Positions 8,619 through 32,213 of a stretch of 64,000 nt of DNA are shown in pieces (positions within the stretch are counted from its first letter, which is position 1; the number at the start of each line of letters is the position of its first letter). Source of the DNA: Promethearchaeota archaeon (GTDB taxonomy: Archaea; Asgardarchaeota; Lokiarchaeia; Sigyniarchaeales; SOKP01); assembly GCA_008080735.1 (NCBI GenBank), contig SHMW01000004.1, positions 32,001-96,000 of the forward strand, read 5' to 3'. Under the pieces are notes generated by a model. The model was not told the origin of the DNA, did no database searches, and saw only the letters and a program-made list of their open reading frames with translations. Made by a program: the position numbers and the translations under genes.

Positions 8619-10133
8619 TTATGGTAGAGCTAATCTACCTGGATGCATTATCATATTAGGATCAACAAGCTTTTTGAAAGCCCTCAAATATTTCCAGTAC
8701 ATTGCTGCATCATAGTACGCTTGAATATGGATATATGGATCTGGTCTGTAATTTAACCAGCCTTGCTTTAATCCGTATTCTGTGGTTTCTCTGTTCAGAT
8801 CTTGGACTTTTTCGAACTCCTTCGGGTCTGTGCTGTCGAAACAGATGATTGGCATACAAATCGCTTGGCGACATCGCTCGATAGACGCAATCCACATTTC
8901 CAGGTGCATCTTGAGGTAAGATGCGATAACTGGTGGAAAGTCGTATTTCTCCATCGCGGCATTATACATCTCGGCGAAGTGAGCACATTCATTCCATGGT
9001 GTGTACCACGTAATAAATAGGAAGCCCGCTTCCCAGAAGCTATACGGAATCGCTATTTTATTCGGTTTCTTCATTCTGCTCTCGATCTGCTTCGGATGTA
9101 ATTCCCACGGTCGCATCGCATCACCGTCTTTCGCTCGATTGGCAGCATAATCCTTACAATGGTTATTAATAGTATCAACAACATGCTCTAACTCTTTCTC
9201 TGATTGTGCCCAGCATTCCCAGTTCATCCACCACTCCGGAATACCAATCTTCTCAAAGAAAGCATATTCGTGAGGAATCTTATCTTTCGGCCATCGAGTC
9301 ATGACTAAGGGATAATTTCCCCCTTGTACCATAACGGTATTGTGAGCAACGCCAAATTCTTTCATACCTAATTCGAGCGTGACATCCTGCATATCATATG
9401 GGTTTGACATACCCCATGCGACCACAGTTTTTGCGTCTGGATGAGGATAAATCTTGACAGCAGCTTTCGTGACAACTCCTAATGCTCCTTGGGAGCCCAT
9501 CAAAAAGGACCACATGTCAGGCCCCAAACCATATTTATAGAACGGTTTTGCGCCTGGAAGAGCCCAAGAGCCAGTTTTTACGACATCACCATTTGGGAAC
9601 ACAATCTCGGCGCACATGAAATTGTCGCCTTGAGGTCCGACCGATGATGTATATAAGGAAAACCCTCTGTCAATCGCATCGCCCATAACGGTCGCCGCGG
9701 GAGGAGCTCCATCCGCGATTGGAGGTGCCCAATCAGGGTGGTTCTTATGCATATATGCCCAGAGCTGCCCGTTCGTGACGCCTGGTTCAATGATCGCATA
9801 ACGATTATCTTCATCGATTTCCAGAATTCTGTCCATCCGTCCTAAATCGAGCATAACGCCCGCTGGTTTAATAGTCGGGCATGCAAACCCTCCGGAGAGT
9901 CCCGCTGAAATGGGAGAGACGGCGATCTTCTCATCAGAACAGTATAAGAGAATCTTTCTGATTTCTTCGACGTATTTGGGTCGCAGTACGACATCAGGAA
10001 TCTGACTTTCCAAGCCCATGACGGATTTTGCGAGGTAGGACGCGGTGATGGCTTCATCCATCGTGGCGTATTCCTTCCCGACGATACCCTCGAAGGCTTG
10101 GAGGTCTTTTTCGGTTGGTGCTTTATAACTCAT
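8619..10133 (-). CDS. FAD-binding oxidoreductase (GlcD/VAO-PCMH family); contains a putative in-frame 30-nt intron
   Basis: PDVVLRP, LDLGRMDRILEID, IEPGVT, GSQGALGVVTKAAVK, DPNMIMHPG; 494 aa if 8898-8927 is removed. Confidence 0.85.
   Translation of the reverse strand: MSYKAPTEKDLQAFEGIVGKEYATMDEAITASYLAKSVMGLESQIPDVVLRPKYVEEIRKILLYCSDEKIAVSPISAGLSGGFACPTIKPAGVMLDLGRMDRILEIDEDNRYAIIEPGVTNGQLWAYMHKNHPDWAPPIADGAPPAATVMGDAIDRGFSLYTSSVGPQGDNFMCAEIVFPNGDVVKTGSWALPGAKPFYKYGLGPDMWSFLMGSQGALGVVTKAAVKIYPHPDAKTVVAWGMSNPYDMQDVTLELGMKEFGVAHNTVMVQGGNYPLVMTRWPKDKIPHEYAFFEKIGIPEWWMNWECWAQSEKELEHVVDTINNHCKDYAANRAKDGDAMRPWELHPKQIESRMKKPNKIAIPYSFWEAGFLFITWYTPWNECAHFAEMYNAAMEKYDFPPVIASYLKMHLEMWIASIERCRQAICMPIICFDSTDPKEFEKVQDLNRETTEYGLKQGWLNYRPDPYIHIQAYYDAAMYWKYLRAFKKLVDPNMIMHPGRLALP
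8898..8927 (-). other. putative BHB/BHL-type mRNA intron, 30 nt, in frame
   Basis: mRNA CA-CCAG-UU^A-UC-GCAUCUU-ACCUC-AAGAUGC-AC-CUGG-AA^A-UG: 4-bp central helix CCAG/CUGG, 3-nt bulges, perfect 7-bp hairpin; splicing gives P-P-V-M-W. Confidence 0.7.
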
Positions 10134-20331: not shown

Positions 20332-22095
20332 TTAATATGTTAATTCTAAAAATTGAGCGACTTCTGTCAAGGATGCTCTATAACGTTTAAAACTATAAAG
20401 ATCTGGTCCAAATATATGGATTAATTTTTTTATTATCTCATTAGGCGCTTCTTTAGGAAATAGTTTGTATTTTTCGTATTTTCTTTCTTCAATTACTATT
20501 GCTGATTTCAGCTCAAATAATTTGTTAATTGCTTCAGTATTTGGATAATTCAGTTCCACGGTAATCAATTCCCCAGATTGAGGTATTTTTTCTATGAGTT
20601 CTTCTTTGGTTCCACATTCTAAACCTTTTTCTGTAATAGTTAGTACCTTATCACAATCAGAAATAATGGTTTCTGGACCGTGAACTATTAATGCTACATG
20701 AAACTCTCTTTTTACATCTTCTAAATATTTCTTAAATTTCTCGTATTGGAGCCGATTTAAAATACCCTTTGGAAGTGAGAACATAATGATATCAGGAGAT
20801 TGTATAAGAGCCCGAGCAATACAAAATAGAAAATAATCTAACGCTTTTAAATCAGATACTGTATTTTTTCTTTTATTATACACTCCCGTAATTTGAAGTG
20901 CCCTCTTCCTAAGTTGTCGTCTTTCGCGATAATCCTGTAGAAATGATACGCTTTTCCAAAAAGGTCCTTTCGTCATCCATTCATCAAACAGAGTTGTAAG
21001 CTCAGACTCTCGTAAAATATTCATAAATTCTTCTTTGCTCCGTTGTCCCTTTATCTTTGTTTCCACATTATATTTAATCGCCTTTTTCAGCTTCATGCCC
21101 GCCATTTTAGAATCAATTGCTTCAGGAACAATGAATATCTTTTCTAAATCCTCTTCAGTGGTTAACTGAATAAATTTACCGAATATTTTTATAGTACCCG
21201 AAAACTGATGGCTTTTTCCTGCGATCGTAGAAAAAAATCTCATTATATTAATCTGTTCTCTACTTGATTCTGAGGAACCTTCATATAAAATTCCTAATGA
21301 TTGTCCTCTCGTAAGCCTAAAACTTATATCTTCCAATTCATCGCTGATTGAGACATCTTCTAATAAAAGATGTTGATAATTTTTGTAAAAATTCCGAATC
21401 TCTAAAATAGATAGAATAATATCTATTAATTCCTCAATTAAATCGATAATATGAGGTGGATTTAACTCATCCCAATTTCTAATAATATCTAATTGGGAAA
21501 ACTCTTCTAGTTTTATTATTCGGGACAGAAAACGTGAGAAATTTATATTTGGTTGAAGCGGGTAATTTTCAAAATTGATATCCAATTGTACATAAAACCC
21601 TGGAAAATAAATTCTTACTCTTCGATGATAAGGTATCTGGTCGAGTTGATAATTCTCAAAATTATCATTGAGAAGTTCTAATTCTCTATCTACTTCTTTT
21701 AAATGGTGTTGAAATTCCCTCTCGATTAATTTATCAATTCTCTGAATGATTTTTCTTGGACTTATTAAACCATCCTCGTCAAAATCCGGTTCGACCAAGA
21801 TTTCATTAAAATCTACTGTCGTTTCTATTGGGGTATTGATTTTTAATAGTGGAACACCTTTTTCTAATACATCCGTGTTAGTAAAGAATAAAACCTCGAT
21901 AAAACTTTTTTTATATTCTAAATCTAAAACGGTCGCTAATCCAAAGGTCCCTTGCCGAAAGATTAACCAATATTTTTCTGAAAACCGAATTGCATCAGTT
22001 ATTTTTTTTCTGAGAATTTCTAATTCTTCTTTCCTTGTTCTACTCAATTTCTGGCACCTCCATTGCTCTAAATCTAAAGTATTGTTCCATAACAC
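20332..22095 (-). CDS. degenerate ABC ATPase-like protein with N-terminal UBC/RWD-like region
   Basis: ISFRLTRGQSLGI, IARALIQSPDIIMF, CDKVLTI, but Walker A/B and signature motifs lost; VQLDINFENYPLQPNINFS..NWDELNPPHIIDLIEEL; true start probably the TTG near 22047. Confidence 0.65.
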   Translation of the reverse strand: MLWNNTLDLEQWRCQKLSRTRKEELEILRKKITDAIRFSEKYWLIFRQGTFGLATVLDLEYKKSFIEVLFFTNTDVLEKGVPLLKINTPIETTVDFNEILVEPDFDEDGLISPRKIIQRIDKLIEREFQHHLKEVDRELELLNDNFENYQLDQIPYHRRVRIYFPGFYVQLDINFENYPLQPNINFSRFLSRIIKLEEFSQLDIIRNWDELNPPHIIDLIEELIDIILSILEIRNFYKNYQHLLLEDVSISDELEDISFRLTRGQSLGILYEGSSESSREQINIMRFFSTIAGKSHQFSGTIKIFGKFIQLTTEEDLEKIFIVPEAIDSKMAGMKLKKAIKYNVETKIKGQRSKEEFMNILRESELTTLFDEWMTKGPFWKSVSFLQDYRERRQLRKRALQITGVYNKRKNTVSDLKALDYFLFCIARALIQSPDIIMFSLPKGILNRLQYEKFKKYLEDVKREFHVALIVHGPETIISDCDKVLTITEKGLECGTKEELIEKIPQSGELITVELNYPNTEAINKLFELKSAIVIEERKYEKYKLFPKEAPNEIIKKLIHIFGPDLYSFKRYRASLTEVAQFLELTY

Positions 22096-25000
22096 TGTCC
22101 GATTGCTTTAATCCAAGTATACTGTTTTCTCCAAACGTTTTTTCTAGCTCCTCGCGAACTTCATTCAAATTAAGGTTCGTGAGCAATGCAAAATCCGTCC
22201 CTACCTTATTTTCCAATGCCTTGTCTATTCCTTCAATTTTCTCTAATCTCTCAACAGCATCTTCTTGAATATCGTAGAAGAAAAGCTCAATAGTTCTCCC
22301 ATCACCGGGTAATTGAGACAATAGTTGTCTAGGCGTGCCAAAATCGATCATACCCCTTCCTCTTCCAAATACAACTACTTTATTACAGAATCGTGATTCT
22401 TCAGGATAATGACTGATTACTATTAAGGTGGTATTATATTTCTCATTAATTTGAGTAAGTGCGAGCCATAAATTCTCACGCACAACTGGGTCTAAGCCCG
22501 AAGTAGGCTCGTCCAGTATGCAAAAGATTGGATTATGAATCAGACCCATAGCAATACTCACCCGACGCTTCTGCCCACCCGATAGATTTTTTACAAGCTC
22601 ATTCATCTTATCTTCAATTTCGAGACTTCGAAGAAGTCGTTTGGACTTGCTTACTATTTCTTTTTCGGTTAGACCATATTGCTTTCCAAAATAGATAAGG
22701 TTTTGCAGAGTAGTAAAATCAGTATAGATCTTGCCTAAATCTTGAGGAACATAACCATAAATAGGTCTAATTTTCCGTTTATTTTTTTTTACATCCATTC
22801 CATAAATTTCACATATTCCCGTATATTTGCGCATTCCTAATAAAGCTTTTACGAAGGTGGACTTACCCGCTCCACTTTCTCCTAAAACGCCCAATATCTC
22901 ACCGTGTTCTAATTCAAGCGAAACACCATCCACAATTAGTTTCTTTCCGATATAAATATCTAAATTTTCACAATAAACCGCTGAAAAACGTTTAAGATAA
23001 TTTATATTTAAATCTCCTTCTAGTCCGATCATTGACTTTAAAATTTTCATCACGCGTTCATTAAGATAAGACAATATACTGATGACGATGAAAGCTACTA
23101 TGAGCAGTGCTTCTGATATCATTAACCATATTAATAAATTACTCCACGGCAATGGATCAAATGCCTGGTCATATCGAATTTCATCTATGATCACTAAACC
23201 ATATGGCGTGTTTCTTAAATCGCCCCCAAATGATGGAATATCGCCAACCCCTCCCGTATTTAGACTAATGCATCGTCTATACCATTCGGTAAGAGTTTTG
23301 ATATCTTCGGGTTGTGAACGATATCGATATAAAGCAATCGAACCTAAATAGGTAGATATGAATGAGGAGGGTAATTCAGTTAATTGGGAAAGAAACGGGA
23401 TAATATTAAAGCTCCCCTCCTCTTTTTGGGCGCCTTTTAAAAATTCTATTGCAGCAATTTTAGAAAGAGGTTCTAAATTCAATATTTTATGAATTTCCAA
23501 TCCATAATATGTAGAGATTACATCCGAATGAAATCCGTGAATAATGGAAAATCCTCCATCGGGATTCTGTCCAGAAGAGATCCAGTGAGTAAGAGTATTT
23601 TGATCTATTAGATTAAGAGCATTTAGATCATTCAAACTTTTAATTGCCCAATAGGTACTTTCTGTGGTGGAAATATTCGTGTCAATCAGATCTTTAAGAA
23701 GTAACTCATAAGCAGGTCCGAAATATGATAAAAGTAACTCAAAATCCTCCCCAAGTTTGAATCCTCCATCCGGATTCTGTAAATTAGCTAAATAATTGAC
23801 TGTTGCGGTCACATTTGGGAGATTTTGAAGCGTATACGGTTTAAATAACTGGTATAGAAATACAGCGCAGTAAGTGGAAAATATTGATGAATTAGCTAAA
23901 GGTTGGGAGCCGAATCCCCCATCCTCGGGATTATAACACGAATTTACAAAATTTATTATGCTATTTATATCTATGTATGTTATATATTTTTCTGAATTCC
24001 AATTATAAAGAGCCAAAACGCCGAGATAATTGATTTGAAGATTCGTCTCACCGATGAGACCATTGAAGGCTTGATATTCATACAACCAATTATAATAGTT
24101 TATTTTAAAAGAATCATCAATTACTAAACTACCATTTTTTTCTAATAAAAAGATTGAATTCATTCCACCCCATCCCGATGTGAAATCGGAAACGTTTATC
24201 GCCCAATGAGGACCAAATCCGCCGTCCAAATTAGTACAATTTGTTACAAATTCTTTAGTTTGTGTTTGATTAATAAAAAAACTATTATTAAAATGATAAA
24301 TATTCCATAATGAATAATAAGTTGCCGATATGTCTGAAATCGCGGCTTGAGTAGATGATCTGAACCCCCCATCCAATGGATTATACAATAGATTATAATA
24401 TCCGAAAATTGCTAATTCTTCTGAAGAATTATATGTATACCCCATTTCTAAATACGCTCGAACGCCATAATATGTGGTTTCAGCGGTCACTGTCGTATAG
24501 GAACGATTAGAATACCTATAACTCCCAGAAAATCCTATTGAGTAGTTCCCTAACAATTTAATATAAGCGGTAATAGACGCATTATTCGTTTCGAGAATAG
24601 AGTTAGCGTTGAGTCTTTTTACGAGCTTAATTGCATAGTATGTAGAGATGATATCTGCCTCGGGGACTTCCTCATTATATTTAAATCCCATCCCCCCTTC
24701 ATCTAATGAATTATTGATGTAATCGATTGTCCGATTTATTCTATCTTGATGCTCGGGTGCATCTAAATAACTCCCGTTGAGCAAATCGATCGTTTCAATA
24801 ACCTTATATGTAGAATACATATCGCCAAGACCTCCTATATCAGAATAAGACCCATCGGGATTTTGTTTTTCAAATAAATAATCTAAGAAAAATTCCCGCT
24901 TACTCTCGCTTAGGTTGGGATTATTCACAGGATGGACAAAATGAGATGTGTTAAATAATGGACTGGAAAAATTAATGGAATCGATAGCTCGATAATTCGA

Positions 25001-25168
25001 ATCTATTGTTGGTTCTACGAACAAGTTGTCGGGATTTTGATGAGTGCCAGAAAAATACGCCATATTGTTTTTATAGCTTTTCACTTGAGCTTCACTAAAA
25101 TATTCAATAAACGGAATATTGATTAATCCTAATACAATTAATTCTCCGATGAACAACCCGATAATCAA
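22040..25168 (-). CDS. prenyltransferase/squalene-cyclase repeat domain, TM helix and ABC ATPase fusion
   Basis: Repeated QNPDGGF-like motifs, many N-x-S/T sequons, TM LLIWLMISEALLIVAFIVISIL, GESGAGKST, LSGGQ, ILDEPTSGLD; frame is open upstream to 25213. Confidence 0.88.
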   Translation of the reverse strand: MIIGLFIGELIVLGLINIPFIEYFSEAQVKSYKNNMAYFSGTHQNPDNLFVEPTIDSNYRAIDSINFSSPLFNTSHFVHPVNNPNLSESKREFFLDYLFEKQNPDGSYSDIGGLGDMYSTYKVIETIDLLNGSYLDAPEHQDRINRTIDYINNSLDEGGMGFKYNEEVPEADIISTYYAIKLVKRLNANSILETNNASITAYIKLLGNYSIGFSGSYRYSNRSYTTVTAETTYYGVRAYLEMGYTYNSSEELAIFGYYNLLYNPLDGGFRSSTQAAISDISATYYSLWNIYHFNNSFFINQTQTKEFVTNCTNLDGGFGPHWAINVSDFTSGWGGMNSIFLLEKNGSLVIDDSFKINYYNWLYEYQAFNGLIGETNLQINYLGVLALYNWNSEKYITYIDINSIINFVNSCYNPEDGGFGSQPLANSSIFSTYCAVFLYQLFKPYTLQNLPNVTATVNYLANLQNPDGGFKLGEDFELLLSYFGPAYELLLKDLIDTNISTTESTYWAIKSLNDLNALNLIDQNTLTHWISSGQNPDGGFSIIHGFHSDVISTYYGLEIHKILNLEPLSKIAAIEFLKGAQKEEGSFNIIPFLSQLTELPSSFISTYLGSIALYRYRSQPEDIKTLTEWYRRCISLNTGGVGDIPSFGGDLRNTPYGLVIIDEIRYDQAFDPLPWSNLLIWLMISEALLIVAFIVISILSYLNERVMKILKSMIGLEGDLNINYLKRFSAVYCENLDIYIGKKLIVDGVSLELEHGEILGVLGESGAGKSTFVKALLGMRKYTGICEIYGMDVKKNKRKIRPIYGYVPQDLGKIYTDFTTLQNLIYFGKQYGLTEKEIVSKSKRLLRSLEIEDKMNELVKNLSGGQKRRVSIAMGLIHNPIFCILDEPTSGLDPVVRENLWLALTQINEKYNTTLIVISHYPEESRFCNKVVVFGRGRGMIDFGTPRQLLSQLPGDGRTIELFFYDIQEDAVERLEKIEGIDKALENKVGTDFALLTNLNLNEVREELEKTFGENSILGLKQSDSVMEQYFRFRAMEVPEIE

Positions 25169-25238: not shown

Positions 25239-26269
25239 CTACTTTTCTAATAATTCTAATCTATCTTTCTCTTCCTCTCTTTTGATTCGTAATTGGAAAT
25301 AACGTCTAAAATTTGCAACATCTCTGCTCATTGCCATTATCTTGACTTCTCTTTCCAGTAAATAGTCGATAAGAGGGAGTAAATTTTCCTCGAAATCTTC
25401 TAAAAATACCTCGACTACATCATTACCTACTCGAGATACTTCTTCACAATGCTCAAAATCCGCTATTATATCAATGATCTCTCCTGTGAGGTTTTCAATC
25501 GATAATCTCGCTAGTAATCCATTGCTTGGTAGAGAGGAAATTAAATTATGGGGGGTATCGAAATCAAGTAATTTTCCTTTCCTTAAGATTGCGGTCTTAT
25601 CACAGACAAGTGCCGCCTCTAAATCATGTGTGATGATAAACATTGTAGTCCCTAGTTTTCGGTTTAATTTCTTAAGATAATTAAGGATATCATAACGCTT
25701 ATTGGCGTCTACACCTTTTATCCAAATTAATTGAGATAATTAATTTGTGTGGTAGGTTCATCTAAAAATAAGACGCCTGGATTATGAATAAGCCCTATAG
25801 CCATTGAGACTCTCTTTTTTTCTCCTCCACTAAGACTTTTTAGTGGGTTTTTCCATGTATCTTCGGGAATATCAAGTATAGAAAATAACTCTCTAGCACG
25901 TTTTCTTGCGTCCTTTTTTGTCATCCCGTAATTTGATCCGAATATTTCTACATTAACTAGCGGGGAAAGTTCATAATAGAGATTTAGTAATTCTAACTGT
26001 GGAACATAACCAATATTACTTAATATCTCAGAGTGATTTCTTTTCTTAGCAGGATTCAGACCAGTGACCATTATATCACCTGACCAATTGTTTTTCTTGA
26101 TTTGACAAGTTAGAACTCTAATTATAGTTGTCTTTCCAGCTCCAGATATTCCAAATAATCCAATTAATTCCTTTTTTTTAACATTGAAAGATACATTATG
26201 AATAATTTGAGAATCACCAAAAAACACATTAAGATTCTCAACATCAACAGATACTTGATTTAAAATCAA
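25239..26269 (-). CDS. ABC transporter ATP-binding protein interrupted by a putative 32-nt intron (join 26269-25749, 25716-25239; 332 aa)
   Basis: Exon 1 GISGAGKTT, LSGGE, LFLDEPTT; exon 2 GVDANKRYDILNYLKKLNRKLGTTMFIITHD; joins track ORFs 25727..26269 and 25239..25643. Confidence 0.9.
25717..25748 (-). other. putative BHB-type mRNA intron, 32 nt, stop-containing and frameshifting
   Basis: mRNA ACC-UACC-AC^A-CAAAUUAAUU-AUCUC-AAUUAAUUUG-GAUA-AA^A-GGU: 10-bp perfect hairpin, central helix UACC/GAUA (one C-A mismatch), two 3-nt bulges, exon helix ACC/GGU. Confidence 0.85.
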
Positions 26270-26476
26270 ACACCACCACTAAGTAGGAAGTTTTTCTCAT
26301 TTTCATTACAATAAATTATACCTAAATTAGTAAACATTACTTTAATTAATGATTTAATGATATTTACAATTTTTAAAATTATGTTAATAAGAAAATTGTT
26401 TAAATTATTTTATTTTTTGTGGGATTTTGACTACTCTTAAAACTCTAAATAACCCGAGAGAATTTTTAAATGAAAT

Positions 26477-27678
26477 TTACTTATTATATCGTTTTAATAT
26501 CAAATGAATCCAATTAATAGTATTAATAAAAATATTGGGAGTGGTATCTGAGTCTTGTGGTGTGGAATGCGAACCATAATTTGATAAAATTCCAAAAGTT
26601 TTATAAACTGAAGATCTTTCAATATGAGTGTCTTGTTTATTTTCAGGAGTTTCTTTTAGGATTTTATGTTTTTCCAGCGTTTCTAGATTTTTCATCATAT
26701 TTTTTGGCTTTTTCCCGAAGCTTTTGATAATTTCTTTCACCACCCCTCAAGAACATTTTTAATCAATGATAAGGGTGCTTTACGTTTGGAGTCAAACAAT
26801 TCCTGCGCTTCATTAAAATCTCGAAGAGCAGTTTTAAAATTGTATTTAATTAATAGCTGATTAATTTCTTTTATTTCTCTTTTAAATTGATCCACAATTT
26901 TTTGTTTTAATATGTCATTCTGTGTTTTGCATTTCTCAGTGTTAAAGTCTTCAATATTTTCTGTAGCTCTTTGGCATACCTTTGTTCCGTTTTCTTTAAT
27001 TTCTATTAATTCATTTAATCTAGGTTCAAAAGTACTATTTTCGAGGATTTTATTTATTTTATCTAATATTTTAGGTAATTCTTGAAAATTCTCTTTATAT
27101 TTTCCCCTTAATTCTTTCTTTGATAATTTATCTAAAATATTTCTAAATATAGTTAGAGCTTCGGCATAATTTCTATAACTTTGAAGGTATTTATCTAATT
27201 TATAATAAATTTCTCCTAAAATTAAGAAATTTTTGACTTTAAGTTTAATATCCCCTATTTCCTTACTAATATCAATTGATTTCTTAGCAAAATTAATAGC
27301 TTTATTATTTTCTCCTTTACTTTTATAAATCACTGCTAAATCGTAATATGTTGCACAGATTTCTCGTCTAATATTACTTTCTTGAGCAATCTTTAAGGCA
27401 TTTAGAGTAGATTGCTCAGATCTCTCGTAATTCCCTTTTCTGAGATAAATCTTCCCTAAATCTAATAAAACTATGATCTTGCAGCCCTTTAAATTATTCC
27501 CTTCACTATATTCTAACATATAATACAATATCTCCTCTTCATTATCGAACTCTTCAAGAGTTCCTAAAGTTGAAAGAATATTTATAAAAAATGTAAGAAT
27601 TCTATCAGAATCTTGAATATTTTCATAAGAATTTAATGCTAGATTTATATAATTGTTAAATTGATCTATATCTCTCAA
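26477..27678 (-). pseudogene. 5'-truncated, frameshifted TPR protein with a possible HEPN/Abi-C-like C-terminal domain
   Basis: TPRs (LGKIYLRKGNYERS, LAVIYKSKGENNKA, LGEIYYKLDKYLQS); one extra G in GAGGGGTGGTG near 26743 joins both ORFs (LEG-VVKEIIK); C-terminal LSNYGSHS. Confidence 0.6.
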
Positions 27679-27691
27679 TTCGAGATAAATA

Positions 27692-27823
27692 TCAGATAAA
27701 TAATCCTATCAATTCTCCTTCATTAACTTCAAATGATACATCATGGATAATATGGGCATCTCCAAAAGAGACATTTAGTTTATCCACCTCTACGACTGGA
27801 ATAACATTATTTATAGCATTCAT
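27692..27823 (-). pseudogene. truncated ABC ATPase N-terminus (43 aa)
   Basis: MNAINNVIPVVEVDKLNVSFGDAHIIHDVSFEVNEGELIGLFI*, paralogous to VDVENLNVFFGDSQIIHNVSFNVKKKELIGLF of the 26269 gene; stops just before Walker A. Confidence 0.8.
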
Positions 27824-27825
27824 AT

Positions 27826-29067
27826 TTACACTTCATACCTCCGTTTGTAGAATAGAATGAATGTGACTATATTCAATACGATGCTTATCCCAAGAAGGAA
27901 AAAGAAATGAAATCCAAATACAGTCTTTCCTTTTGCCAAAATAGCTTCCACCATCGGACTTCCATGTGTTAATGGCAATATATTCGCAAAGACTCGTAAA
28001 TAGATGGGCATCGATCCTAATGGAACAAAAATACCACTGAGCAAAATAATAACAATGAAAAATGCAAAGAATAACTGATTTGCCTCCGTTTTACTCTTAC
28101 TGAGAGAACTAATGAAAAGACCGAGACTAATTCCAGTGTATCCTAGGATATATATCGCTAGGAACAGCTCAGATAAGGACCCCTTCAAATAAAGACCGCC
28201 AAATATAGAAGCTAAAAGTATGAGAAGAGTTTGTAGAAATAATACTAACGAGTAAGTGATATATTTCGAGATGAGTACTTCTGCTCGTTTTACGGGGGTG
28301 AGTAATAATCGTGCTATGGGTTTTTCTTTCACGATCACTAGAATCGTCAATACATTTGCGATTCCGAAAATCATCAAAGGCAAAATCATAATCAAATTCG
28401 AGTTCAAGCTGGCATTATAATCTGCTGGAATTGAAAACTCTTCATTCGGCTCTAATACAATTTGAGGAGTCAAATTATTCGCTGAGATAAAAAGATTCAC
28501 AGAATCATATATCGCATTCAATATTTTTTGAATATCTGCGATTCGTGAAGAATCTGGTATACACTCGATCGAGGCGGGGAGCTCATATTCAAGCATCTCA
28601 CTAAATTCTAAAGGAACAACAATAATGCATTTTATTTCTCCATGTAATAACATATTTCTAGCAGTTTCCATCGAATATCTTTGTTCGGGGTTTGTGGTAT
28701 TATAAAATGCTATTAGATTCAAAGAGTCTGTCTCATTGACCGCGTTTATGTATGGAATGGTATAATTATCCCATGTGGTTTCTGTATAATTATTATTGGG
28801 ATTAATAAAGGTGTTTGAATCATTTGAGACGATTACTACGGGAAATGCACTTCCATTACCCGCTTCTTGATTCATAAAAGAAAATAACATAATGATTCCA
28901 GGAGGTAATAGTAGCGCGATGACTAAATTCCACGGATCAGTCCGTAATAGTCTAAATTCTTTTTTAATTTGTTTAAAAAGGCGAAATAAGCTGTTCTTCA
29001 AATTTATTATTGTTCTTTTGAAAGAACTCTTTTGATTTTTATCTGTTTTCTGTTCTTTCACCATCAA
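27826..29067 (-). CDS. ABC-2 type transporter permease
   Basis: KKEFRLLRTD, large extracellular loop, RLLLTPVKRAEVLISK, LSGIFVPLGSMP..LPLTH. Confidence 0.9.
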   Translation of the reverse strand: MMVKEQKTDKNQKSSFKRTIINLKNSLFRLFKQIKKEFRLLRTDPWNLVIALLLPPGIIMLFSFMNQEAGNGSAFPVVIVSNDSNTFINPNNNYTETTWDNYTIPYINAVNETDSLNLIAFYNTTNPEQRYSMETARNMLLHGEIKCIIVVPLEFSEMLEYELPASIECIPDSSRIADIQKILNAIYDSVNLFISANNLTPQIVLEPNEEFSIPADYNASLNSNLIMILPLMIFGIANVLTILVIVKEKPIARLLLTPVKRAEVLISKYITYSLVLFLQTLLILLASIFGGLYLKGSLSELFLAIYILGYTGISLGLFISSLSKSKTEANQLFFAFFIVIILLSGIFVPLGSMPIYLRVFANILPLTHGSPMVEAILAKGKTVFGFHFFFLLGISIVLNIVTFILFYKRRYEV

Positions 29068-30203
29068 ACCTCCACCTTTTTAAACATATATACTATATAA
29101 GCTAATGCATCATATATAAGCGCAATAATTACTACAATCAACAATGAATAGATATCTACGGGCAATCCTTTCAACGTGATTTCCAATACCAATGGTATTG
29201 AATGATACAATGGGAACGAATAAATTATTGCTTGCATAAATACGGGCAAATTATCGGCACTAATAAACTGCCCTGAAAATATTAATATGACAATAAAAAA
29301 CATAATATATAACTGATTTGCTTGTTGATCGGTGCCACTTAGAGACGAAATAAATAGACCTATTGACACCCCAGAAAATCCAATGGCAAGCAGAACTAGA
29401 AATAATTCAAAGAGAGATCCAAGACTATAAAGCCCAAAGAGAGCTGTCGCAACAAAGATTTCCGCTACTTGTATGCTCATTATTGCTGAATTTGCGATAA
29501 GTTTACTTAATATAATTGACCTTTTTGAGGTTGGAGTAATCAGCATTCGAGGTAATGGTCCTTCAGAAACAATTGATAAGCAAGATAAATTCATCGTGGT
29601 TCCAATAATAATTAACGGAATAGTCAGCGCAAATGCGTAGTTCACGACCTGAGCCTCCCAGAATGGTACTTCAAATTCTAAATATGGTATGAAATATGTG
29701 AAATTGGCGGTTTTTCCAATTTTTATTCTAAATTGAGCGATTGGCTCGAACATGGTCACGTTTATAGCACTTACTGCATCTGAATCTGAGCCGTCTATAT
29801 AAAAAATTATTGGAATATCAGTATTATTCTCAACTGTTTCCGAAAAATTTTCGGGAAGGACTAAGAACACATCAATGACTTCATCTTTTAACCATTGGGT
29901 ATAAAATGATTTTGCTTCTTCATATTCTTCTGGATTAGTAACATTACGATAGCCCTTGAATCCAAAAGATGATAAATTACCTTCAAACACATTAATAAAA
30001 TCGTCCGCATATTGGGACGAATTTTCGGGGAAATTCTCATATGTGGGAATACTATCTTTTGAAATAATAGATACATTGAAGAATTCAGTAGGACCCCCTC
30101 CTGAGGTTAACCCGAATACTATAATTAAGATCAGTGGGATTGCAAATAAGAGAATTAGAGTACGCTTATCACTTCGTATTCTCCCAAACTCCTTTCTTAT
30201 CAA
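29064..30203 (-). CDS. ABC-2 type transporter permease
   Basis: RKEFGRIRSDKRTL, IDGSD, RMLITPTSKRSIILSK, FSGQFISADNLP. Confidence 0.9.
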   Translation of the reverse strand: MIRKEFGRIRSDKRTLILLFAIPLILIIVFGLTSGGGPTEFFNVSIISKDSIPTYENFPENSSQYADDFINVFEGNLSSFGFKGYRNVTNPEEYEEAKSFYTQWLKDEVIDVFLVLPENFSETVENNTDIPIIFYIDGSDSDAVSAINVTMFEPIAQFRIKIGKTANFTYFIPYLEFEVPFWEAQVVNYAFALTIPLIIIGTTMNLSCLSIVSEGPLPRMLITPTSKRSIILSKLIANSAIMSIQVAEIFVATALFGLYSLGSLFELFLVLLAIGFSGVSIGLFISSLSGTDQQANQLYIMFFIVILIFSGQFISADNLPVFMQAIIYSFPLYHSIPLVLEITLKGLPVDIYSLLIVVIIALIYDALAYIVYMFKKVEV

Positions 30204-31160: not shown

Positions 31161-32213
31161 ATGGAATCAATAACAGAAAAGTTAAATACGAACTTTTTTA
31201 AGGGTGTATTGGCGCAGGAGGGCTTTTCGGTTCCGGCTGTACCGATTATACTTGGCTATTCAATTTGGGCTTATTCCCATTATAAAAAAATTCCCGCAGA
31301 AAGAATTATGAGAAATGGAGAATTCCACGCCGCAGCACAATTATATGTTGCAAAAAAATATGAACTCCCGTTTGTGGTTACCTTCACAGATCTCAATCTT
31401 ATTGGAGAAGCATTGGGAGCCCAATTAACTTACTTGCCCGATGTGATTCCTGTTCATGAATCTCCTGCAATTCAAAATTTAGATGAGATAAATAACCTTT
31501 CTCCCGCTAATCCTGAAAAAGATGGAAGATTGCCCGTAATCGTGAAGACCGCCGAAATTTTCAGTGAAAAATTTAAAGCTGATGAACATATTTTAATGGC
31601 TGGATGTGAAGGTCCCGTCACTGCAAGTGGCTCGATTGTAGGGATGGAAAACTTAATGAGAAATATGATTAATCGACCCGAAAAAGTTCACAAGGTGTTA
31701 GATATCGCCTCTCAGAGTATAATCCGCTTTTTAAATGCCCAATTAAAACGAGGAATGGAATTTGTAACACTCGCGGATCCAAGTGCCTCTTGTACTTGTA
31801 TCTCTCCGGAATTCTTTAAGGAATTTGCGCGTCCGTATTATAAAAAGATTGTAAAACAGGTTAATTCCCCTATTTTTATGATTCATATCTGTGGAGAAGT
31901 CCTACCAATCTTAAAAGATCTAATAAGAATTCCAAAGATGATGATTATTAGCGTTGATGATGTCGATATGGCACAGGCTAAAAAAATAATTGGAAATAAA
32001 TTTGTCTTGTTAATGGGAAATGTTTCAACTTCAATCATGCGATACGGAACGGCTTCCCAAGTTGAAATGGAAGTTAGGCGAGTGATTAATAAAGCGGGAA
32101 AAGGGGGTAAACTTTTACTTAGTTCTGCGTGTGATTTATCACCAGGCACTCCCGAAAGAAACATTCTTACAATGATTAAGGCGGCAAAAAAATATGGTAC
32201 ATTTCCACTTTAA
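31161..32213 (+). CDS. MtaA/CmuA-like methylcobamide methyltransferase (UroD superfamily)
   Basis: EALGA, DGRLPVI, GPVT, ADPSAS, HICG and SSACDL Zn-ligand motifs; directly follows the corrinoid gene. Confidence 0.85.
   Translation: MESITEKLNTNFFKGVLAQEGFSVPAVPIILGYSIWAYSHYKKIPAERIMRNGEFHAAAQLYVAKKYELPFVVTFTDLNLIGEALGAQLTYLPDVIPVHESPAIQNLDEINNLSPANPEKDGRLPVIVKTAEIFSEKFKADEHILMAGCEGPVTASGSIVGMENLMRNMINRPEKVHKVLDIASQSIIRFLNAQLKRGMEFVTLADPSASCTCISPEFFKEFARPYYKKIVKQVNSPIFMIHICGEVLPILKDLIRIPKMMIISVDDVDMAQAKKIIGNKFVLLMGNVSTSIMRYGTASQVEMEVRRVINKAGKGGKLLLSSACDLSPGTPERNILTMIKAAKKYGTFPL

Follow-up and report, generated by a model that had tools for sequence, protein, structure and literature searches.

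The closest described counterpart of the element considered here is the intron of the archaeal cbf5 gene, on which earlier work is reportedly that of Watanabe in 2002 and Yoshinari in 2006. In the Desulfurococcales and Sulfolobales, the pre-mRNA for this pseudouridine synthase carries a bulge-helix-bulge (BHB) intron of 16–44 bp that is patchily distributed, keeps the reading frame in some of its versions and has been shown experimentally to be spliced (Yokobori 2009, PMC2738675). Within the searchable literature, endonuclease-type splicing of archaeal mRNA is confirmed for cbf5 of Crenarchaeota only (PMC2738675), and none is reported in Asgard archaea. Here we describe a 32-nt insert that interrupts the gene for an ABC-2-type transporter ATPase on the minus strand of a 64,000-nt stretch of DNA from a Promethearchaeota archaeon (positions 32,001 to 96,000 of contig SHMW01000004.1, assembly GCA_008080735.1). 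This stretch is referred to below as the window, its genome as G000 and its genus as g1. Related records are metagenome-assembled genomes (MAGs) of Promethearchaeota/Promethearchaeia, i.e., Loki-type Asgard archaea.

Overall, comparison with related genomes makes it highly probable that the 32 nt constitute an archaeal BHB intron of the hBHBh′ type within a protein-coding transcript, spliced by the endonuclease EndA and the ligase RtcB, and the ATPase mRNA is very probably spliced. The flanks are laid out as ACC-UACC-ACA ... GAUA-AAA-GGU. In the pre-mRNA, exon ACC and GGU would form a 3-bp outer helix (h), exon UACC and intron GAUA a 4-bp central helix (H) with one C·A mismatch, and the 10-bp hairpin of the intron the inner helix (h′), with ACA and AAA left as two 3-nt bulges. 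We infer that the endonuclease would cleave each bulge between its second and third bases and that ligation by RtcB would then give ...GAA CCU ACC AC/A GGU GUA GAC... (the slash marks the junction). The predicted product is an ABC ATPase of 332 aa (173 + 1 + 158) with an intact Walker B/D-loop region (DEPTTGVD).

An ATPase gene interrupted within one fold

The break in the ATPase gene lies between Walker B and the D-loop, within a single fold, and exon 1 covers positions 2–136 of the 137 in the Pfam ABC_tran model. Following ...GAA CCT ACC AC, the 32 nt from 25748 down to 25717 consist of an A, the hairpin and GATAAA. Left unspliced, the reading frame stops at the TAA inside the hairpin, seven codons into the insert, and would yield a truncated protein only; as a logical consequence, expression of the ATPase would depend on splicing. 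The predicted spliced junction in this lineage is CCUACCAC joined to AGGUGUAGAC, the junction k-mer of the spliced form is CCTACCAC joined to AGGTGTAGAC, and the peptide stretch across the predicted junction, which spans DEPTTGVDANK, is FLDEPTTGVDANK. Owing to a repeated A, the placement of the junction in this genome carries a 1-nt ambiguity.

A sequence-only reading of the window had described the split at Walker B/D-loop, the perfect 10-bp hairpin with its in-frame TAA, and a flanking motif with two 3-nt bulges and a 4-bp helix containing one C·A mismatch. The open reading frames, their translations and the sequence itself agree with this description, and the motif DEPTSGLD, which that reading had cited from an intact neighboring paralog, is indeed present in the adjacent 1042-aa protein. 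With respect to stability, a minimum free energy of −21.5 kcal/mol (z = −4.1) was obtained for the 91-nt region, and 0 of 200 shuffles were equally good. Taken from this sequence alone, the BHB motif is suggestive rather than compelling, and relatives show its canonical form more clearly.

Both halves of the gene are open and conserved, which would also fit a split gene whose products are translated separately, without splicing, and then assemble into the ATPase. Such an arrangement appears very unlikely, as exon 2 lacks a start codon ahead of the internal Met in TTMFIITHD, the two halves would have to meet inside one fold, and the BHB covariation and covarying exon wobble bases described below would be left unexplained.

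A shared insertion site with exact junctions

Among 135 genomes searched from the same family, 67 matched at E ≤ 1e-55, and 66 of these orthologs were read. Eleven of these, drawn from independent MAG projects and spread over five genera of one Promethearchaeota family, carry an insert of 31–34 nt at the same codon (Thr AC/N before GVD). Specifically, the insert measures 32 nt in G000 and G006 (both g1); 33 nt in G008 (g3), where it keeps the frame yet contains two in-frame stops; 34 nt in G010 (g5), where the hairpin is GC-richer and of unrelated sequence; and 31 nt in six genomes of genus g2 and in G064 (g11). The four lengths correspond to three different frame offsets. Hairpins of differing sequence occupy the same place in the other genera, with an inner helix of ~8–11 bp. 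The ACA of the 5′ bulge is invariant in all 11 carriers, and the 3′ bulge has A or U as its last base, which completes the Thr codon in every case.

The remaining 55 orthologs encode an uninterrupted DEPTTGVD, and the boundaries of the stretch that they lack coincide exactly with the predicted cuts. Under the BHB cut rule, stop-free frames of 335–356 codons result in 10 of the 11 interrupted genes, the eleventh (285 codons) being ended by a contig edge, and the predicted spliced product matches the DEPTTGVD of the insert-free orthologs. The same cut rule had led the earlier reading to EPTTGVD and a protein of 332 aa, with an alignment to orthologs lacking the insert suggested as a check; the junction obtained in this way equals that of all 55 orthologs.

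A conserved fold with compensatory changes

Applied without guidance to the 11 sequences, RNAalifold returned a 3-bp outer helix, a 4-bp central helix, a pair of 3-nt bulges and the inner hairpin. In this consensus 96.5% of pair cells are paired, a figure that falls to 11–50% when the partners are slid by 1–3 columns; both sides have changed in 7 of 13 pairs, synonymous exon positions included; and 0 of 500 shuffles equalled the real alignment in covariation score or in the percentage of paired cells. Compensatory changes are present in all helices. For the central helix, g3 and g5 have UACC/GGUA, and g2 and g11 have AACU/AGUU (or GACU, or GGUU); it is perfect or contains G·U in the nine relatives outside g1, and varies on both sides across genera at pairs 33–70 (U-A, A-U, G·U) and 36–67 (C-G, U-A, U·G). 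The outer helix, (A/G)CC with GG(U/C), is paired in 11 of 11 sequences. Its pair 30–76 of alignment A1, formed by the wobble positions of a Glu and a Gly codon, is A-U in five rows, G-C in five and G·U in one, and pairing between these third positions is possible in 11/11 intron-bearing versus 34/56 intron-free genes. Because the helices include G·U pairs, the structure belongs to the sense-strand RNA.

A further 7-bp exon–exon pairing, GGCGUCU (25771–25777) with AGACGCC (25704–25710), had been proposed in the sequence-only reading as an extension of the structure. It is part of the minimum-free-energy fold in this genome, but it is lineage-specific, being present in genus g1 only, and we rejected it as a conserved feature. 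In terms of other RNA classes, Rfam gave merely two unrelated matches, both below the gathering score and on the opposite strand, and 31–34 nt is too short for a self-splicing group I or II intron.

A stable hairpin with a stop codon right after the break is also reminiscent of translational recoding, in which ribosomes would bypass the hairpin or shift frame across it, as in phage T4 gene 60. We regard this as extremely unlikely. Matched take-off and landing codons are absent (the gap follows an ACA codon, and there is no ACA ahead of GGU), and the required shift would vary by species among 31, 32, 33 and 34 nt, with two in-frame stops in the 33-nt insert. Moreover, the covariation is that expected of the two-bulge motif and involves pairs of exon bases with the 3′ end of the intron, which bypass would not need.

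Several points weigh against a BHB intron at this locus. The minimum-free-energy fold in G000 pairs ACCU with AGGU, leaving a 6 × 6 internal loop and not the mismatched central helix. The C·A mismatch of this helix is also found in G006, and cleavage of the weakened motif is assumed. In addition, the outer helix is just 3 bp long, and the 11 sequences are kin, so that the covariation counts exceed the number of independent events. The spliced junction of this lineage had zero matches in metagenome contigs, and a collection of 5.8 billion proteins contained no full-length protein >81% identical, and so lacked both the spliced product and any intron-free allele from this lineage. A query with the spliced-type junction of g2 gave two metagenome matches whose similarity to the orthologs is confined to a 56-nt stretch; these are not orthologs and probably belong to other ABC ATPases.

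Selection on the exons and the nature of the insert

Exon 2 is subject to purifying selection, with a dN/dS of 0.02–0.23, including in pairs where both genes contain the intron; between G000 and G006 the value is 0.06, with a dS of 1.6. Within g2 and g11, identity is 85% for the intron and 39% for 4-fold sites in the exons on either side, and the intron in these two genera is either strongly constrained or else recently exchanged. The relatives indicate that the insert is kept by selection.

The operon is rearranged in G000, with a remnant of an ATPase start and an inserted TPR gene, and on that basis the break could be attributed to a decaying pseudogene, an assembly error or a small palindromic mobile DNA element. 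The probability of any of these appears close to negligible. Exons that are intact and stop-free, with exon 2 in the dN/dS range given above, exclude a pseudogene; disabling mutations in the flanking exons, which had been named beforehand as the mark of decay, number zero. An assembly artefact is excluded by the occurrence of the same break in 11 independent assemblies. With 2 mismatches allowed, the hairpin is single-copy in the 4.1-Mb G000 genome, and with 3 allowed it is likewise single-copy in all of the five g2 genomes scanned; one copy per genome excludes a repeat or mobile element. A miniature palindromic element, for which multiple copies would be expected, was rejected on this count.

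Gain, loss and probable transfer of the intron

The gene tree implies at least eight gains or losses of the intron, which is present in G010 and absent from G051 (~96% identical). In three close pairs that each match an intron-bearing gene to an intron-free one, exon differences cluster at the junction: 6/48, 10/48 and 9/48 over the 24 nt on either side, versus 4–9% elsewhere. G113 (L015) differs from the near-identical intron-free G133, G122 and G127 (L032, L037 and L024) only around the intron, in a ~45-nt patch (about −30 to +13), and the simplest reading is that its intron was gained along with a short exon conversion tract.

G000 and G006 provide a further case. Their 96% identity is limited to exon 1 and the intron, exon 2 being ~80% identical and the upstream region not alignable, and in G006 the permease is followed directly by the ATPase, without remnant, TPR gene or spacer. 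The identity profile, together with the 43-codon remnant and the TPR gene of G000, points to import by recombination, and the present exon 1 and intron of G000 were probably acquired in this way, with an end point adjoining the intron. The transfer scenario draws on few cases; most likely, the intron is inherited, lost and exchanged between species via homologous recombination.

These distributions also bear on conditional splicing, an addition to splicing and not an alternative to it, in which the intron would act as a switch that makes transporter output dependent on a signal, as in HAC1/XBP1. The authors of the cbf5 study proposed a role as negative regulator for the cbf5 intron (PMC2738675), and the conservation of the ATPase intron (85%, against 39% at synonymous sites) extends to loop bases that the BHB fold by itself does not require. 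Nonetheless, the intron is missing from 55 of the 66 orthologs, including the sister of G010, the motif is a plain BHB and not the twin 7-nt loops recognized by IRE1, and the locus has no linked sensor. Its frequent absence from sister species suggests that the intron is dispensable. We therefore consider conditional splicing unlikely, and the regulatory analogy with XBP1/HAC1 offered in the sequence-only reading found no direct support, as sister species do without the intron. Most likely, the ATPase intron is tolerated as a passenger and is obliged to remain spliceable.

Splicing machinery and other candidate introns

G000 encodes two EndA-family proteins (PF01974, 103.7 and 68 bits), on contigs C72 and C37, and two RtcB proteins (PF01139, 570 and 556 bits). 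Its EndA is probably of the alpha-beta heterotetramer type; Asgard EndA has been described as (alpha beta)2, with an L1 loop linked to a broad substrate range (PMC5829648). ARAGORN recognized zero tRNA genes in the window and just 26 in G000, a genome estimated to be 93% complete, and 16 of these have introns. Many tRNA genes of G000 are probably too interrupted for recognition, and the count fits a report of heavily interrupted tRNA genes in some Asgard archaea (bioRxiv 10.64898/2026.10.13.758758). Taken together, the site shared by 11 species, the compensatory changes, the exact junctions, the selected exons and these enzyme genes strongly support the proposal, first made from the sequence of the window, of a BHB mRNA intron in an Asgard archaeon.

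A second candidate was found in dnaG of G000 (contig C77, 17330–17361, minus strand; locus L125:1331–1362), where a 32-nt insert could form a central helix GGAC/GUCU with bulges AAG and AAA. With the DnaG equivalog NF003108 (NCBIfam), exon 1 aligns to model positions 1–26 and exon 2 from position 27, and the insert lies exactly between them. The outer exon–exon helix is weak, and the dnaG motif is accordingly a relaxed one. Genome-wide scans for BHB sites joining two open frames, controlled by decoy pairing and shifted junctions, gave real counts that match the controls (e.g., 551 versus 465–541) because gene junctions dominate; under strict settings, the focal intron alone stood out. The scans were without statistical power and are uninformative on intron number, and their thresholds missed dnaG.

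We lean towards the view that splicing of protein-coding transcripts by the tRNA-splicing machinery is routine in Promethearchaeia, and that BHB mini-introns of 28–37 nt may reside in many of their genes, the transporter ATPase gene and dnaG among them, kept spliceable by selection on wobble bases and passed on with short exon tracts. If true, this would amount to a non-spliceosomal layer of mRNA splicing, with its own dynamics of intron gain and loss, in the closest archaeal relatives of eukaryotes.

As a separate observation, the window contains at 8889–8940 (minus strand) a hairpin, GCATCTT-ACCTC-AAGATGC, that lies inside a coding region and has a loop resembling the AUCUC loop of the intron.

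Genomic setting

The features of the locus are listed in Table 1. The interval 26270–27823, between the permease and ATPase genes, also contains an AT-rich spacer. Downstream in the cluster, on the minus strand, are the 1042-aa paralog (22040–25168), in which a prenyltransferase alpha-alpha-toroid ectodomain is fused to an ABC ATPase, and a 587-aa protein with no Pfam match (20332–22095).

Table 1. Coordinates, in the window, of the interrupted ATPase gene, the parts of its predicted BHB motif, and the genes upstream
Feature	Coordinates	Strand	Description
Exon 1	25749..26269	-	ABC-2-type transporter ATPase; Walker A, signature motif, Walker B; ends ...LFLDEPT + AC (first two bases of next Thr codon); from the ORF list and translation
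Exon 2	25239..25716	-	A (third base of Thr codon), then GGT GTA GAC...; A/GGT GTA GAC = (T)GVDANKRYD...; D-loop, H-loop, C-terminal domain; stop codon included
Insert (predicted 32-nt BHB intron)	25717..25748	-	Last base of 5′ bulge, hairpin, 3′ strand of central helix, first two bases of 3′ bulge; from the sequence, homologous inserts in 10 other genomes, consensus structure and covariation
Outer helix h, 5′ strand	25755..25757	-	ACC, wobble base of Glu codon and CC of Pro codon; partner GGU 25713-25715
5′ strand of central helix H	25751..25754	-	UACC, exon; partner GAUA 25719-25722; contains the C·A mismatch
5′ bulge	25748..25750	-	ACA; predicted cut between 25749 and 25748
Inner helix h′	25723..25747	-	Perfect 10-bp hairpin CAAATTAATT-ATCTC-AATTAATTTG; loop AUCUC; in-frame TAA 25727-25729
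3′ strand of central helix H	25719..25722	-	GAUA, intron
3′ bulge	25716..25718	-	AAA; predicted cut between 25717 and 25716; 25716 becomes third base of Thr codon
Outer helix h, 3′ strand	25713..25715	-	GGU, Gly codon of D-loop
TPR gene	26737-27678		Between permease and ATPase
ATPase 5′-end remnant	27692..27823	-	Older; 43 codons; 66% identity over 32 aa to present exon 1
Two ABC-2 permease genes	27826..30203	-	Same transporter; upstream, same strand; Pfam ABC2_membrane_3

Comparison with known systems

The ATPase gene would be a second, unrelated archaeal protein gene with a BHB intron, one with strong comparative support and in the lineage closest to eukaryotes. Genes that seem broken in Asgard MAGs may then be intact and undercounted by annotation, and RNA structure would constrain synonymous codon positions near such sites. 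It would also become possible to study how introns are gained, lost and laterally exchanged in a prokaryote with eukaryote-like cell biology, and the ATPase insert offers a short, defined substrate for probing the specificity of Asgard EndA.

With respect to the archaeal tRNA and rRNA introns that are cut by EndA and joined by RtcB, the ATPase insert shares their geometry (3-nt bulges, a 4-bp helix and flanking helices) and their cut rule, and its host genome is rich in tRNA introns. The resemblance to the splicing of HAC1 and XBP1, which relies on IRE1 together with a tRNA ligase or RtcB, lies in the non-spliceosomal excision of a short, frame-changing mRNA intron followed by ligation of the RtcB type. 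IRE1, however, sees two stem-loops with 7-nt loops and is regulated by stress, whereas what is conserved at the ATPase site is one BHB fold whose bulges are 3 nt long, and we rejected IRE1-type splice sites as an assignment.

The ATPase insert most closely parallels the cbf5 intron in its position in a catalytic core, in the existence of some frame-keeping versions, in its patchy gain and loss, and in a host with a hetero-oligomeric EndA, as G000 probably has. It differs in residing in an unrelated gene, that of an ABC-2 transporter ATPase, and in another phylum, the Promethearchaeota (Asgard), and in that its splicing is predicted from comparative data, whereas that of cbf5 is experimental. 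The ATPase intron further differs in showing evidence of transfer with short exon tracts, and dnaG is interrupted in the same genome. Its host gene being an ABC_tran ATPase, the insert is not a member of the cbf5 intron family; it would be the same kind of intron, and a different one.
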